IMG/VR virus record: IMGVR_UViG_3300035522_000179
Location: 32,001-96,000 of that record
DNA from: a virus
Taxonomy: Duplodnaviria; Caudoviricetes
Reading direction: 5' to 3' (one strand)
DNA: 64,000 nt
The translations under genes were made by a program, and so were the position numbers. Below the pieces are notes generated by a model, which did no database searches, was not told where the DNA came from, and was given only the letters and a program-made list of their open reading frames with translations. Positions 4,807 to 29,510 of the stretch are shown here, piece after piece (the first letter of the stretch is position 1; each line of letters opens with the position of its first letter).

Positions 4807-5547
4807 ATGGCTAATTTTGATGAGTTGTATGATATGATTAATGGTGCAACTTATGAATCCATGTTTGAGATTGACGATGATATGGATACAGATGATATTG
4901 CATATATCGAGAGTTGCAGGGATCTTACTGAGTACCTCGAAAAAACACGTATCACAGACAATGATGGAGAAGGTCCTTCTACTTTTAGAGAAAAACTCTC
5001 TAGATTTGCATTTAATAAAAAAGAAGATCTCAGAGAGGGCAAAGCTCGCATACAAGGTGCATTCGACAACGCAAGGATTAAGAAAATTCAGAAAGATATA
5101 GAGAAGAGAGAAAACTCTGATGGTGACGAGACTGTTCCTCAAAAGAAAATTTTTGCTCATTTGAGTAAAGGTGAAATCCTTGCAGGTGTTGGACTCTTAG
5201 CAGCCGCTGGTGTTGCTTCTCTTACCGTGATCAGACATAAGACAAAGAACAAAGAGATTGTTAAGACTGTAGATGATTTGAAGAAAGAGATTGAAGAGAT
5301 CAAGAAGTCTGCTAAAGCAGGTGAAATTTCTGTTAGAGAAGCTTGGAGTGAAACAAGAAGAATTAACAAAGAGATCAAAGCTCTCGAGAAAGCTGCTGAG
5401 GCTGAAGAGAAAGCTAATGCTGCTGAGGAAGCGAAGAAGGCTATGAAGGAGTCTGCTGATGATGTAAGACTTGAGATTTACGAGTCTTGCTATTACGGTG
5501 AGATTTCCGAGGACGAGAGAGATCTGCTTCTGGATCTTATGGACTAA
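4807..5547 (+). CDS. Tagged-family protein (MANFDELYD leader, TM-like helix, coiled coil, C-terminal tag)
   Basis: ILAGVGLLAAAGVASLTVI hydrophobic stretch; ends LEIYESCYYGEISEDERDLLLDLMD; degenerate palindrome/late motif at 4717-4759. Confidence 0.8.
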   Translation: MANFDELYDMINGATYESMFEIDDDMDTDDIAYIESCRDLTEYLEKTRITDNDGEGPSTFREKLSRFAFNKKEDLREGKARIQGAFDNARIKKIQKDIEKRENSDGDETVPQKKIFAHLSKGEILAGVGLLAAAGVASLTVIRHKTKNKEIVKTVDDLKKEIEEIKKSAKAGEISVREAWSETRRINKEIKALEKAAEAEEKANAAEEAKKAMKESADDVRLEIYESCYYGEISEDERDLLLDLMD

Positions 5548-21458: not shown

Positions 21459-22598
21459 ATGAAAAACACTAAAGATATTTTCTCGAATAATAATTATGGT
21501 TATGCTATATATAATGAATTAGAAGAAATGGAAACGGCTTCAAAGTTCACTGGGAAAATGGCATACACCGGCTTTTTGTATTTGGTTTTAGGGTTTTTCT
21601 GTTATTTATATTACATTCACATCACAGAGATGGTGATTCCTATCTTCATTACGATAATCATTACATCCCTTTCTATGATAGCGGCTTCTCAATTATCGTA
21701 TATCATAGGAATCAAATCATCCATTAAAAAACTATCAAAACTAGAGAAGTTAAGAGTACGATCCAATGAAAACTTTGATATGATGTCTGGTTGGGATATC
21801 ATCTGTAAAGAGGTCTATGGATACAAAGCTTTGACAACGTACATACTTTTCTATATCATTCCTTTAGTGATTATGTGTATTTTACGTGTTCATACATTTG
21901 ACCTTGGAATAAATCTTGGGATTTATTTAGGTCAGATTGTAGCTGGAGTTTTCATCTACTATGCACTAGAGGATTATATCAAGTTAAACAAAGTAAAATT
22001 TACCAGAAGAGTATTCTTTCGGAGTGCTGCAGAATCCTCTTTGACAAATGTACGAGATGTCAATTTATCCGTTGTGGTAAACAGTAGAAGATATATCGGT
22101 CTTAATAATAAACTGATGTACAATCTTCCAAATGATTTATCCACGTTTAAAGAAAGAACCACGAACTCGATTGTGATTATGGGAAGAAAAACCTATGAGT
22201 CTTTAAATAAAAAGGCGTTATCCAATCGGATCAATATTATCATCAGTTCCAATTCGGATCTTTATATGGACAATGACAGATGCATTTGTGTAAGAGCAAG
22301 ATCGGCAGAGGGAGCACTTGCAATGGCAAGAGCTTATATCTTTGAATCGAAGGTAATTCTGAAAGAAGACGTGTACAATGATATTTGGGTAATTGGAGGT
22401 TTACAAACCTTTCAATCCTTTATGCCTTTTGTAGATAAGATCTATGAAAGAGTTGTGATAAACAGCAATATTGGAGATACCCAATGGTTTTTCGATACTA
22501 CAGATTTTGAATTATCACATACGAGTGAAACATCGAAAGATGGAAAGGGAATCGTTATGTATGACACATTCGAAAATTTATATGTTAGAAGGGATTAA
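21459..22598 (+). CDS. Dihydrofolate reductase fused to an N-terminal multi-pass membrane domain
   Basis: IGLNNKL..LPNDLSTFK.RT...VIMGRKTYESL..LSNRINIIIS, IWVIGG; four hydrophobic stretches in the first ~170 aa. Confidence 0.8.
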   Translation: MKNTKDIFSNNNYGYAIYNELEEMETASKFTGKMAYTGFLYLVLGFFCYLYYIHITEMVIPIFITIIITSLSMIAASQLSYIIGIKSSIKKLSKLEKLRVRSNENFDMMSGWDIICKEVYGYKALTTYILFYIIPLVIMCILRVHTFDLGINLGIYLGQIVAGVFIYYALEDYIKLNKVKFTRRVFFRSAAESSLTNVRDVNLSVVVNSRRYIGLNNKLMYNLPNDLSTFKERTTNSIVIMGRKTYESLNKKALSNRINIIISSNSDLYMDNDRCICVRARSAEGALAMARAYIFESKVILKEDVYNDIWVIGGLQTFQSFMPFVDKIYERVVINSNIGDTQWFFDTTDFELSHTSETSKDGKGIVMYDTFENLYVRRD

Positions 22599-25353: not shown

Positions 25354-26841
25354 TCACTCATCTACTTCACCTGCGATTTCATCATCCTCATTAGATAACA
25401 TCTCTTGTACTTTGCCTCTTATGGAATCTCCGGAAATAGTAACGGATGCAGTTGTTTCAGAGATTTGTTCTTCCTCATCCGAATCCTCTTCTAAATCTTC
25501 TTCATCTTCGAATTCAATCTCAACATCAGATTCATCCACTTCTTCTAGACTTTCTACAAGGTCATCATCAATTTCCTCTTCTTCTTTATCTACATTCGGC
25601 TCTTCACCGTTCTGCATTCTTTCATAAAGCATGAAGACTTCTTCGTAAGAATGAGCGTGCTTTGTATTCCATCCAGCTTCATCCAGCTCTTTTAACATTA
25701 ACAACTCTTCATCAATGATCTGTTGAAGAACTTTTTCCGGGTCATCCCCTTCTGCCAATGCTTTGTAAGAGTCATCATAGTAGCTTCCGAGCTCTCTCTT
25801 GATGTTTTCTCTGGCAGCTTCTTTTTTCTTAGCATTCATTTCCTCTTCTGCTTTGATTCTTTCCGGATGATACTTGTAGTTGGTATTGTGTTCTTTAAAG
25901 TATTCATGATTTACCGGATTATCAAAGTAGGAATAGAAGATTCGCATCTGTTTTAATACAGCGTTCTTCGTATCCTCCGTTGCTTCTCCCATCACGACAT
26001 CATTCAGAGCAGAAATAATTGCAGTAATATATCCAACTTCTCTGTCAGAACTTAAATCACAGAAACCGATGAATCTTACAACATAGAACAAAAAGAGATT
26101 ATTATAAGGAAGATAATCTTCCGGAAGAAGTGTCTCCTCCAGATTGTAAAACATGTAATGAACTGCGTACTTGCATCCGAGTTTATTCAGAGCATTGTAG
26201 TATTTATTCATTACATAGCTTCCTTTTTCTTTTGTAAAGTAAGATTCCTTTACGGATTTTACTTCACTCTTGGGGTGATTGATTAGTCTCTTTGTTAAGA
26301 AGGTAAGATCTTCTGTTTCTCTCAGAGTATCATATTGCTTCTGAAGTCTGGCATTCTCCAAAGGATCCGTGGTTTCCGAAATCCTTTGCAGAAGATCTTC
26401 ATGAATGTATTTTGCTTTGGCTGCTTTATACTCTGGAGATTTTAACTTCTTAACATAAGCATCAAACAACTCACCGCGATTCTGCTTCAGTTCTTCCAAG
26501 CTGTCTTTTGTTTCATCATAGGAAATAACGCTTTCCTTAATGGAATGAATTCTCTTTACGCAGAAATCAAAGAAAGGTGTTGATGTATCTCCTAATTTGT
26601 AATACTCTTCTTTGAATGCATTCTCATTGCAATCTCCTTTTTTCAGGAGGTCTTTAATAGAAATAAGATCCAAAGCATCAATCTGAGTATCTGACATATT
26701 TGCAACAATACGTGCAAATTTCTGGGTTATCCCAAATTCTCCGAGTGCTTCTTCCACACTCTTTTGATAATCCTCTACGGTGCTTTCATAAATTTCTAAA
26801 AGCTTGTCAAGTTCCTTTGTAGCATCCATAATCTCACTCAT
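25354..26841 (-). CDS. Hypothetical helical protein with a very acidic C-terminus
   Basis: 495-aa ORF, AAGGGA RBS. Confidence 0.7.
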   Translation of the reverse strand: MSEIMDATKELDKLLEIYESTVEDYQKSVEEALGEFGITQKFARIVANMSDTQIDALDLISIKDLLKKGDCNENAFKEEYYKLGDTSTPFFDFCVKRIHSIKESVISYDETKDSLEELKQNRGELFDAYVKKLKSPEYKAAKAKYIHEDLLQRISETTDPLENARLQKQYDTLRETEDLTFLTKRLINHPKSEVKSVKESYFTKEKGSYVMNKYYNALNKLGCKYAVHYMFYNLEETLLPEDYLPYNNLFLFYVVRFIGFCDLSSDREVGYITAIISALNDVVMGEATEDTKNAVLKQMRIFYSYFDNPVNHEYFKEHNTNYKYHPERIKAEEEMNAKKKEAARENIKRELGSYYDDSYKALAEGDDPEKVLQQIIDEELLMLKELDEAGWNTKHAHSYEEVFMLYERMQNGEEPNVDKEEEEIDDDLVESLEEVDESDVEIEFEDEEDLEEDSDEEEQISETTASVTISGDSIRGKVQEMLSNEDDEIAGEVDE

Positions 26842-26922
26842 ATGTTTCGTTCCCTTTCTTTTAAAAAATTACTATATTGTGCCTATCTAAATAATTATTT
26901 ATCACAATCATAACATATTTGT

Positions 26923-27205
26923 AATACTCAGGGACGGATCCGATTCGCCTGTTGGCGTGCCGGTAGCAATGAAAATACCTGTTCCTTACTTATTGTTTTA
27001 TCTTGCGGGCAATATCTGTCAAGGAATGATTCCTTCGATTTGTTGTTTTGCATGGCTTGTAAAACTCCATAAAATGTGTAAAGAATGCTGTACCGGTGAT
27101 TGAAGGCGGCATTCAGCGGCGTAGCCTTCATTTTGGGGCGGAATAGGGGGTTCGACTGAGTATTAACGATCCTAGAGGATAATTCAGTATCCTCTAGGAT
27201 CTCTT
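26923..27205 (+). ncRNA. Candidate structured late ncRNA (~245 nt plus terminator)
   Basis: AACA-N6-TA at 26912-26923; closing stem TAATACTCAG/CTGAGTATTA; internal hairpins; raised GC; terminator at 27168-27201. Confidence 0.65.
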
Positions 27206-27210
27206 TGTTG

Positions 27211-29367
27211 TTAAAATGAGAAAGGATTATCATCTTCGAAAGTGTTAATCCCGTTTAATTCATTAAATAAATCAAGATCAATGGAATTCGATCCATAGTC
27301 TTCATCAAATGCGGTCATCTCTTCTTTTGTTACATTTCCAGTATCCAAAGAAATCGAAGAGGACATGATCTTCGCAGTCTCTTTTTGAGACTCCAATATC
27401 GCTTGTCTTAAAATGGATTCATAATCCATCATCTTAGCAATTTTCTGATCTTCTATAATTGCTTCTGCCACATCTTCTGGTAATACTTCCGCTAGTTCTC
27501 TCTGTGTTCTGTGTAACCCTCTATTGGGTTCTGTTTTTTCTTTCTCTCCAGGAATATAACCAAACAAAGGAAGGTTATTTCCATGAATCAAAACATACAT
27601 AGCAATCAAGTAAGACATAATACTATCGTCGTGTGATCCAGGTCCTGCAGCAATCTTTCCAGAAGCAAGACGAACAAGTCCAGAGATATCTCTTATGATG
27701 TTTGCCGTAATAAAGTCATCTTTGTTTGCAGCAATTCGATCGGCAAGAATTGCGAACATATCACTTCTAGATTCTTTATCCGTATAAACTCCATAATAGG
27801 ATTTTTCAGCAGCTTTCTTCTTAAGAATGGATTCTACGGTTTCGTTTGCATTCATAGTATCCTGAACCAAATCTTTTGCTCTATCGAAATACAATCTATG
27901 AGAAATCTTACTATTGAGTAAGTGATCAATGATTCCATCACCTACACTGTTTCTCTCGATACATACGATCGATCTGGGAATGTGCTGTGTTACCAATTCA
28001 ATAATAATCTGTTCATATTCCGTTTCACCAACATAAGAGCACTCAAACTCTGCAACAGGTCTAGCTGTATAAGGATTTAATGCAGTGATTGCATTGTGGT
28101 CTTGGTTGGTACCAGTAGAACAGTCGATACCGAGAATATAGGGAATTGCAGGATCCAATTCTTCGTAGATCTTAAACTCATAATAATCTCTGATCCAAAG
28201 AGAAGAAATCGGTTTATGAGCATGATCGTTGATATACTCGATATCCTCTTTCGGATAAGGAGACAAAGAAGATCCATGTAGTCTTTGAAGCAAAATTTCT
28301 CTTCGAACAGTAAGAGGATCTCCAATCTCATTTGAGATTTTCTCAAGCCACTCTTCATCCAAGCCAATCTGATAGTAGTGAAACTCAATATAAATGATAT
28401 TGTTGGATCCACCAGATTTTGCATAAGCTTGCATCTCTTCTTTTGTCATGTCATAAATTTTCTCGGTCCAAGGTTTTGTATTATTCAAAACAGCTTGTGC
28501 TTCCTGACCAGCACCGGAATCCAAATCACCAGGAGTACATGTAAATACTCTTGCATGTAAGGTTCCATTTGCTTCGGATGCTCTTGCTGCTGTTTCATAA
28601 GTAGATACGGAGTTACTGATAATACTTCCAATATAATCCGTAAACTCCGGCTCATCATAGTGAATGATAGGAGCAGTCAAACCACGCGCAAGGGATACTG
28701 CTTTTGGTCTAGATCCAGCACCTGCTCGAATTTTAATGGTGTTCTTTGTAACAGGTTGTTTCATCTGGGTAGCGTTATTAACTGCTTTTACTGCTTTTCC
28801 TGTTTCATCGTCGTAATACGATTCGAATCTCATATACTCAGGAAGTAAATCAATTTGTGTTTTGATACGTCCTAAGTTTTCTTTTGCGTCTGGTTGTTGT
28901 TTATTCACAAAAATAAAATCAGAGGTAGTTGTTCCAAAAGAATAACCCCAAGCAAATGCAGCTAGTGCAGATTGTGTTTTACCTTGCTGACGAGGTAAGC
29001 ATAACCAGGAGTCAATTCCATGTAGAATACAAAACGCTTGTGCGATGTTTCCTCTGTTTGCTTTATACATAACACCTTTCGGATTACCAGGGTCTGGTAT
29101 TCGGCATACTTCTCTTAAATAATACCAAAGATTCCTTCTACACTCTGTAATCACTCTAGCAATTTGGTCTCTGGTAAGTGTTGTATTTCCATTACTATCT
29201 ACTGCATGAGGATTTACATTGATTAATGTCGGATCATTTAATTCGAGAAGAAAATACCATTTCTTGACACCCAGCGTTCTAAGGTCTTTTGCTAACTGCA
29301 AAAAAGAAGTATTTGCAGTTCCAATGTCATAAATTTTATTTCCTATTCTTTTTAGTCTAGATCCCAT
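27211..29367 (-). CDS. terL: Terminase large subunit
   Basis: Walker A PRQQGKT, Walker B IIHYDE, nuclease motifs LGIDCSTG, CIERNSVG, HDDSIMS. Confidence 0.93.
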   Translation of the reverse strand: MGSRLKRIGNKIYDIGTANTSFLQLAKDLRTLGVKKWYFLLELNDPTLINVNPHAVDSNGNTTLTRDQIARVITECRRNLWYYLREVCRIPDPGNPKGVMYKANRGNIAQAFCILHGIDSWLCLPRQQGKTQSALAAFAWGYSFGTTTSDFIFVNKQQPDAKENLGRIKTQIDLLPEYMRFESYYDDETGKAVKAVNNATQMKQPVTKNTIKIRAGAGSRPKAVSLARGLTAPIIHYDEPEFTDYIGSIISNSVSTYETAARASEANGTLHARVFTCTPGDLDSGAGQEAQAVLNNTKPWTEKIYDMTKEEMQAYAKSGGSNNIIYIEFHYYQIGLDEEWLEKISNEIGDPLTVRREILLQRLHGSSLSPYPKEDIEYINDHAHKPISSLWIRDYYEFKIYEELDPAIPYILGIDCSTGTNQDHNAITALNPYTARPVAEFECSYVGETEYEQIIIELVTQHIPRSIVCIERNSVGDGIIDHLLNSKISHRLYFDRAKDLVQDTMNANETVESILKKKAAEKSYYGVYTDKESRSDMFAILADRIAANKDDFITANIIRDISGLVRLASGKIAAGPGSHDDSIMSYLIAMYVLIHGNNLPLFGYIPGEKEKTEPNRGLHRTQRELAEVLPEDVAEAIIEDQKIAKMMDYESILRQAILESQKETAKIMSSSISLDTGNVTKEEMTAFDEDYGSNSIDLDLFNELNGINTFEDDNPFSF

Positions 29368-29510
29368 ATTTATAGACCTCCATTAGAATAACGTTTTTTG
29401 AATGGATTCGAAAACCACTTTTGGTCAGTGATATATTATTTTTATGGAACCAGACAAGAAAAACTGAATATGGAACAAAAAACGTCATAAGAGAAAGCGA
29501 GGTAATTAAT

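Follow-up and report, generated by a model that had tools for sequence, protein, structure and literature searches.

A candidate stand-alone non-coding RNA gene next to terL in an uncultured AR9-like jumbo phage

Background

In an uncultured jumbo phage of about 250 kb, the gene of the large terminase subunit (terL) and its neighbor, a gene encoding a protein of 495 aa, are both located on the minus strand and are separated by a gap of 369 nt. Inside this gap, an element of atypical GC content is found at positions 26923-27165 of the plus strand. The locus raises the question whether this element is an RNA gene, a part of the surrounding operon, a small protein gene or a piece of non-functional DNA. 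A first-pass annotation, made from the sequence, had proposed a structured, late non-coding RNA of a novel kind. To our knowledge, very few non-coding RNAs have been described in jumbo phages that encode their own multisubunit RNA polymerases.

The phage is represented by an IMG/VR record of 249,613 bp that is rated 100% complete, with a genome GC content of 0.362. The window, i.e. the whole stretch of DNA analyzed here, comprises 64,000 nt and corresponds to bases 32001-96000 of the record. All coordinates refer to the window unless stated otherwise.

Results and discussion

Transcription signals of the phage

The phage groups with the AR9-like jumbo phages by GC content, ribosome binding sites (RBS), RNA polymerase genes and classes of upstream motifs. 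The RBS of its genes are strong and Firmicutes-like (AAAGGAGG), and two beta-like RNA polymerase genes are present. A Bacteroidetes-type promoter (TAnnTTTG) was rejected, as the motif is not enriched and the Shine-Dalgarno (SD) usage is Firmicutes-like. Two motif classes are found upstream of genes. The first one, TGATATATTATTTT..TGAA, occurs in about 60 copies genome-wide, is extended -10-like and resembles the early type of AR9. The second one, AAAAAACAAT-nnn-TTAAT, occurs in about 25-40 copies and contains the AR9 late consensus AACA-(6N)-TA/G. This late class is located 5-30 nt before gene starts, including that of a virion structural protein gene. In AR9, the last base of the late consensus is the transcription start site (PMC5312081). 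The AR9-type polymerase recognizes its promoter as 3'-UUGU-5' in the single-stranded template, where the uracil is required (PMC9209446). Example sites of the two classes in the window are located at 29414, 31301, 36506, 55643 and 62712. An early-type motif is found upstream of the ABC transporter gene at 29421, and a late-like AACG variant upstream of terL at 29398-29383 (minus strand), 12 nt before the SD sequence of this gene.

The genes flanking the gap

The first-pass annotation placed the element convergent to the terminase gene, which holds true. The neighboring gene (27211-29367, minus strand, 718 aa) matches the PHROG terminase large subunit with E-values of 2.9e-40 and 4.2e-34, and its product has 493 homologs, the best of which is 63% identical. 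The C-terminus of TerL aligns with the family consensus. About 12 additional C-terminal residues (NTFEDDNPFSHF, encoded at 27211-27252 of the minus strand) follow the consensus end ...FNELNGF.

The gene is complete up to the family C-terminus and uninterrupted, which led to the rejection of an intron in terL as an explanation of the element. Similarly, a group I intron was rejected since there is no Rfam match and the better-folding strand opposes both neighboring genes. In many relatives, the terL match extends over 2.4-3.2 kb rather than 2.15 kb (loci L003, L014, L015, L026, L037-L040, L042-L046, L056 and L066). In L042/L045, three open reading frames (ORFs; 279, 298 and 139 aa) share the match; in L037/L053, it is divided over several ORFs with inserts of about 700 nt. 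These interruptions resemble introns or inteins and have no counterpart in the terL of this phage.

The 495-aa gene (25354-26841, minus strand) is divergent from the element and is the syntenic neighbor of terL in many relatives. Its product has no match in Pfam, PADLOC, NCBIfam or PHROG.

Boundaries and composition of the element

The body of the candidate RNA (26923-27165, plus strand) is 243 nt long, is G+U-rich on the plus strand and occurs once in the 250-kb genome. Its GC content of 0.449 is raised, as annotated before, and exceeds both the genome average (0.362) and the values of all other 50 long non-coding gaps (0.17-0.40).

At the 5' end, a promoter-like box, CAATCATAACA-nnn-TTGTAAT, is located at 26905-26925 (plus strand). 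It contains AACA at 26912-26915, followed by six bases and TA at 26922-26923. These bases agree exactly with the minimal late consensus of AR9 and predict A26923 as the +1. The exact late promoter of the first-pass annotation is therefore present, and its predicted start falls at the beginning of the terminal stem described below. By itself, the minimal motif is weak evidence: It comprises six bases of low information, is expected about 0.09 times per 100 nt, and has 144 copies in the genome, 61 of them within the non-coding 9%. On the extended late profile of this phage (A-run, AACAAT, nnn, TTAAT), the box is a poor fit with -1.3 bits; 3,509 genome positions score as well. The standing of the promoter is raised because gene-proximal sites lacking an A-run exist and because the whole box recurs before a real gene. 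Among the non-coding AACA-N6-T[AG] sites, 46 of 70 are found within 120 nt before a gene, about 10 of these without an upstream A-run. The second copy of the 21-nt box is located at 189305-189285 of the genome (minus strand; window coordinate ~157305) and is identical in 18 of 18 specified bases, while the next best genome sites have four mismatches. It is found about 104 nt upstream of a 237-aa gene and about 35 nt upstream of an early-type promoter. The two-copy box may represent a sub-class of the late promoter.

At the 3' end, an intrinsic terminator (27168-27211, plus strand) was found where the first-pass annotation had indicated one. It consists of a 14-bp stem (27168-27201) with a 6-nt loop, followed by TCTTTGTTGT, and abuts the terL stop codon. 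Six of the 14 pairs are G-C. The U-tract exists on the plus strand only, and the terminator was called for this strand only. As it works in this single direction, it argues for something being transcribed toward terL.

The boundaries of these features coincide. The 5' arm of the terminal stem starts just 1 nt ahead of the predicted +1 (26923), and the 3' arm is separated from the terminator stem by only 2 nt. This coincidence is the strongest internal argument for an RNA gene. The preferred reading, which in our estimate has an about even chance of being correct, is that of a small, lineage-specific, late, stand-alone non-coding RNA gene in a variable accessory slot between terL and the next late gene.

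Predicted secondary structure

All helices and folds of the element were predicted from its single sequence. Besides the 10-bp terminal stem, the first-pass annotation had listed the nested helices ATTCGCC (26943)/GGCGGAAT (27137), CCGGTA (26960)/TACCGG (27091), TGAAGGC/GCCTTCA and AAGGAAT (27021)/ATTCCTT (27029). All of them exist in the sequence and are compatible with each other in a nested fold, which has -70.4 kcal/mol when they are enforced. Without constraints, the optimum (-77.5 kcal/mol) retains the terminal stem and the hairpin at 27021. It replaces the middle helices with CGGAUCC/GGGUUCG, CCUGUUCC/GGAAUAGG and GAAUGCUG/CGGCAUUC, several of which include G-U pairs.

The terminal stem, P1, is present in all folds computed. 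Its 5' arm (26922-26931) forms 10 Watson-Crick pairs with its 3' arm (27156-27165) at pair probabilities of 0.84-1.0. It is followed by P1b, in which CGGAUCC (26935-26941) pairs with GGGUUCG (27148-27154) at a mean pair probability of 0.99. P1b is also formed when the helices of the earlier fold are enforced, and it is specific to the plus strand because it contains two G-U pairs. P1 and P1b together provide 17 pairs that close the element end to end. The hairpin AAGGAA/UUCCUU (27021-27035, probability 0.87) is common to both folds. Two other regions have alternative pairings. In the first one (26943-26985), GGAAU at 27137-27147 pairs either with ATTCGCC (26943-26949), as in the earlier fold, or with CCUGUUCC (26978-26985), as in the optimum, and these pairings are mutually exclusive. 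In the GC-rich 3' domain (27083-27130), either GAAUGCUG/CGGCAUUC (27083-90/27107-14, p 0.91) or TGAAGGC/GCCTTCA (27101-07/27124-30) is formed, as the two helices cross. Both the minimum free energy and the centroid structure, as single-sequence predictions, are multi-branched with six branch points.

The structure is moderately above chance. The z-score is -2.4 for 26918-27170, where 3 of 200 shuffled sequences fold as well, and -4.9 for the whole predicted transcript including the terminator. Among 2,424 genome windows of 250 nt, which cover 60% of the genome, the element takes 12th place by raw energy; with the GC content corrected for, it falls to 47th (z -2.07, top 2%). Through G-U pairs, the plus strand reaches a folding energy of -78.6 kcal/mol vs. 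-55.2 kcal/mol for the minus strand. An advantage of 22 kcal/mol of the plus over the minus strand is equalled by 25 of 1,212 windows (top 2%). The G+U richness accounts for a part of this difference, which is a compositional effect. The GC-corrected z-score of the minus strand is +0.40, i.e. no better than average.

The strand bias bears on a different explanation, in which the element acts in cis for the late terL operon. As a spacer between the cistrons or a 5' leader on the minus-strand read-through transcript, it could serve as a processing or stability signal for the 495-aa gene; alternatively, a plus-strand RNA could function solely as the cis-antisense partner of this spacer in a duplex that is cleaved. 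The hairpin after terL has no U-tract on the minus strand, so that terL transcription probably reads through into the 495-aa gene, for which no convincing promoter was found in the gap. Moreover, the five helices of the first-pass annotation are all Watson-Crick and could form on either strand. The average fold of the minus strand and its clearly weaker folding energy are at odds with a cis element, however, and relatives get by with only 47-60 nt between these two genes, so that an element of this kind is dispensable. Neither the internal structure nor the raised GC content would be needed for a purely antisense role. A function in cis is thus considered improbable.

Search for relatives of the element

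The first-pass annotation did not recognize an RNA family, in agreement with the Rfam 15 search: Nothing was found at gathering level in the window, and only chance matches at E-values up to 10 occurred in 26700-27400. ARAGORN reported no tRNA or tmRNA genes in the window, and a tRNA, tmRNA or tRNA-like element was rejected, also because the GGGGGTTCGA string is not followed by a complementary 3' arm.

No relative of the element was found with nhmmer in 80 terL loci or with blastn in 50,697 phage records. In 37 whole related phage records, 21 of which are at least 90% complete, blastn returned only chance matches of 14-20 nt. A covariance model (R1), built from the single sequence of the element and the optimum fold, recovered only the element itself from these 37 records and its own genome. 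Exact and purine/pyrimidine-degenerate patterns of the element had no match in viral, metagenome and GTDB genome contigs. A pattern reduced to the two P1 arms at the right spacing matched once in 2.9 million viral contigs, in an unrelated coding region. None of 185,579 GTDB species genomes contains the 20-mer from the end of the repeat. The phage occurs in the samples behind SRR11794809 and JGI 3300043109. The sequence in the second assembly (SRR11794809), the only other one with this phage, is base-for-base identical and thus offers no population variation. Judged by these searches, the element appears to be an orphan of a single lineage.

An orphan of this kind might also be non-functional or selfish DNA, i.e. 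a foreign fragment of higher GC content or a MITE-like insertion, with the promoter-like and terminator sequences belonging to the slot. This would agree with the atypical GC content, with the absence of the element from 37 of 37 related genomes and with a gap that is highly variable among relatives (47 to 1,644 nt) and has unrelated contents. The ends of the element form a perfect 10-bp inverted repeat (TAATACTCAG/CTGAGTATTA), of which the outer TA is possibly a target duplication. The TA on each side is palindromic and could be either a part of the repeat or a TA duplication. Of the features of a MITE, the terminal inverted repeats are thus present, but multiple copies were found neither in the own genome, where the element is single-copy, nor in the 37 relatives and GTDB, in searches that needed near-exact ends. 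The same holds for the repeat-end 20-mer, whose absence from the species genomes likewise refers to near-exact ends, and no family member with the same ends was found in the 2.9 million viral contigs. A remnant also leaves unexplained why the repeat ends meet the promoter +1 and the terminator, and why there are many G-U pairs specific to one strand. Overall, this explanation is rather unlikely, though it is the first to be considered if the element is not an RNA gene.

The slot downstream of terL in related phages

The gap downstream of terL is syntenic: A homolog of the 495-aa gene follows terL in about 40 of 80 related loci (tblastn). The distance from terL to the next gene ranges from 47 to 1,644 nt in relatives, and the gap is usually AT-rich and without similarity to the element. 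In many relatives, the slot holds a unit that is convergent with terL and consists of an early-type promoter, a strong SD sequence, a tiny ORF and a strong terminator by the terL stop codon. The encoded peptides are acidic and 12-27 aa long, e.g. MDTNDTVIIEWDD, MYPDFNDCDIVID and MFFGEDSVVLVD; others, of 50-55 aa, are basic at the head and acidic at the tail. These observations point to a variable place for small self-contained accessory units (a "moron" slot), which in this phage has an RNA-like cargo.

The acidic peptides share the motif D-x-x-V/I-I/L-I/V-D/E, as seen in MDTNDTVIIEWDD, MYPDFNDTDIVIE and MFFGEDSVVLVD. Such micro-genes are located on the strand opposite to terL in L003 (5915-6170), L015 (5491-5799), L054 (5622-5835), L065 (5996-6340), L004 (5122-5484) and L006 (5104-5507), in the gaps of L017 and L020, and in L034, L014 and L048. 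In several loci, codons of the ORF pair with the SD sequence of the micro-gene and thereby sequester it. The convergent acidic micro-gene is absent from the phage studied here.

Known phage morons have several features in common with the candidate, namely an own promoter-like motif and terminator, a location between two conserved late genes, an atypical GC content and the restriction to one lineage. As in a moron slot, the relatives carry different small units at this place. Classical morons encode proteins, whereas the candidate has no translatable ORF by the tests run.

Coding potential

None of the four candidate starts on either strand of the element is preceded by an SD-like motif, compared to 158 of 213 ORFs under the same test. 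On the plus strand, there is no pair of SD sequence and start codon, which supports the earlier statement that a sense ORF with an RBS is missing. Two ORFs have to be considered nevertheless.

The first ORF (26928-27233, minus strand, 101 codons) covers the element. It could be an orphan small protein gene of 67 to 101 aa that is co-transcribed with terL and the 495-aa gene. It spans the whole element in the direction of both neighbors, an arrangement with a chance of about 0.02, and a gene caller already predicted a 67-aa form, i.e. the last 67 codons from 27131. Its codon score of -0.06 is located between those of genes and wrong frames. This score is 3 SD below that of the phage genes (0.34 +/- 0.13), however, and the GC content at third codon positions is 0.50 vs. 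0.35 in phage genes. Neither ATG is preceded by an SD sequence, the 101-codon ORF includes the 14-bp hairpin, which precedes the ATG at 27131, and stop codons are scarce on the C+A-rich strand for compositional reasons. The protein has no match in Pfam, PADLOC, NCBIfam or PHROGs. In an exhaustive HMMER search against 1.84 billion representative proteins, it retrieved only itself and, as the sole non-self match, a translated tandem repeat. The Atlas model is disordered (pLDDT 0.48) with look-alikes at chance level only. A protein gene on the minus strand is therefore unlikely, ranking slightly before the function in cis discussed above.

The second ORF (26969-27103, plus strand, 44 codons) is located inside the candidate RNA and encodes a hydrophobic, Cys-rich peptide (26969-27100), in which a single stretch resembling a membrane helix precedes a charged, Cys-rich tail. 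The element could accordingly be a structured messenger for a membrane peptide in the style of type I toxin mRNAs, with the paired ends hiding the start region. Both the pairing of the two ends and the compact fold predicted for the element are characteristic of messengers of the hok or fst type. In addition, small peptides are encoded by relatives at the same slot and in the same orientation. Against this, a hydrophobic ORF of the expected kind is present but has no usable RBS, since neither its ATG nor the upstream GTG has an SD-like motif. The codon score of -0.85 is typical of a non-coding frame, a word-index search returned no candidate homologs, the peptide is unlike the acidic peptides of the relatives, and an antitoxin RNA is not apparent. 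A toxin-like messenger is very unlikely on these grounds.

Proposed mode of action

With regard to the preferred RNA gene, the element has the sequence anatomy of a delimited unit, a fold biased to the plus strand, no translatable ORF and no relatives in the collections searched; from this we infer that the candidate RNA would be transcribed, stable and active in trans, together with some partner. The claim of a novel phage RNA is upheld insofar as a stand-alone plus-strand unit without a translatable ORF belongs to no described family. That this unit is in fact an RNA is plausible but unproven.

In the proposed model, the non-virion multisubunit RNA polymerase would start at A26923 from the AR9-type late motif. 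About 245 nt of GC-rich sequence would be transcribed before the polymerase stops at the plus-strand terminator (27168-27201), yielding an RNA of about 285 nt. The 17 pairs of P1 and P1b would then clamp both ends around the multi-branched core. Such an architecture would be expected for a stable RNA acting in trans rather than for a messenger. The RNA would most likely act as a scaffold or decoy that binds proteins and is produced late in infection.

If the element is transcribed, it would be a new structured RNA from poorly known gut or environmental jumbo phages with their own multisubunit RNA polymerases. It would also indicate that an RNA gene, in place of a peptide gene, can occupy the small accessory slot next to terL. 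At present, the element is a single-lineage candidate and a target for strand-specific transcript mapping, and not an established discovery.

Comparison with known RNAs and a possible link to the phage polymerase

The candidate would belong to the phage-encoded structured non-coding RNAs, which are a known kind. The phi29 pRNA (RF00044) is likewise a phage-encoded, stand-alone and highly structured RNA from a Firmicutes phage, with its own promoter and without an ORF. It comprises 174 nt and is found in small phi29-like phages, whereas the candidate is located in a 250-kb jumbo phage with a classical TerL and does not match RF00044. A packaging-associated RNA, one of two functions suggested in the first-pass annotation, finds no support: There is no match to the pRNA model, and the only tie to packaging is the position by terL, which is not conserved in the 37 relatives. 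An essential role in packaging is unlikely because these relatives package their DNA with orthologous TerL proteins and without the element.

The other suggestion was a 6S-like decoy of RNA polymerase. 6S RNA and the candidate share the size class, the paired 5' and 3' ends and the proposed late-stage expression. However, 6S RNA folds into a rod whose large central bubble imitates an open promoter, while the candidate is predicted to be multi-branched with six branch points. No 6S model matches even at an E-value of 10, and this suggestion finds no support either.

The candidate and the late transcripts of AR9 follow one promoter grammar, AACA-(6N)-TA/G, with transcription starting at its final base. 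Antisense transcripts of AR9 arise from seven of its late promoters, and its untranslated regions are up to 491 nt long (Lavysh et al. 2017, PMC5312081). These transcripts have been mapped experimentally, and their description does not present them as discrete structured RNAs, whereas the candidate is known from its sequence alone and ends at a terminator before terL.

Possible antisense targets in trans were searched for in the phage genome. Only chance complementarities of 11-14 nt were found, with the exception of a 12-nt identity (TTATTGTTTTAT) between 26990-27001 of the element and the palindromic late-promoter repeats of a cassette locus. In the plus-strand RNA, this segment is a template-strand copy of the AAAACAAT promoter core. 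It is conceivable that a late-made RNA acts as a decoy or regulator of the non-virion RNA polymerase of the phage, where the uracil-bearing copy AUUGUUUU within 26990-27001 would occupy the promoter pocket. UGUU occurs five times in the 243-nt element, and a full template-strand mimic of the promoter (TA-N6-TGTT) is absent from it. The probability of the 8-mer coincidence by chance is about 0.015-0.03, and the coincidence was noticed only in hindsight. The 12-nt identity is therefore only a faint hint at a link to the polymerase, and this specific mode of action is a long shot, less probable than any of the explanations above. If true, a decoy RNA could tune late transcription, as 6S RNA does for the bacterial polymerase, and, as an RNA that imitates a single DNA strand, it would represent a polymerase mimic of a new kind.

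The palindromes carrying the late-promoter repeats are 44 bp long and are located at 1696, 6500, 10660 and 12192, with partial copies at 5547 and 11556. The window further contains an ORF of 379 aa (21459-22598, plus strand), in which an N-terminal half without an assigned identity is fused to a dihydrofolate reductase (NCBIfam, E 2.9e-17) as the C-terminal half. This fusion ORF bears on the use of thymine vs. uracil in the DNA of the phage.
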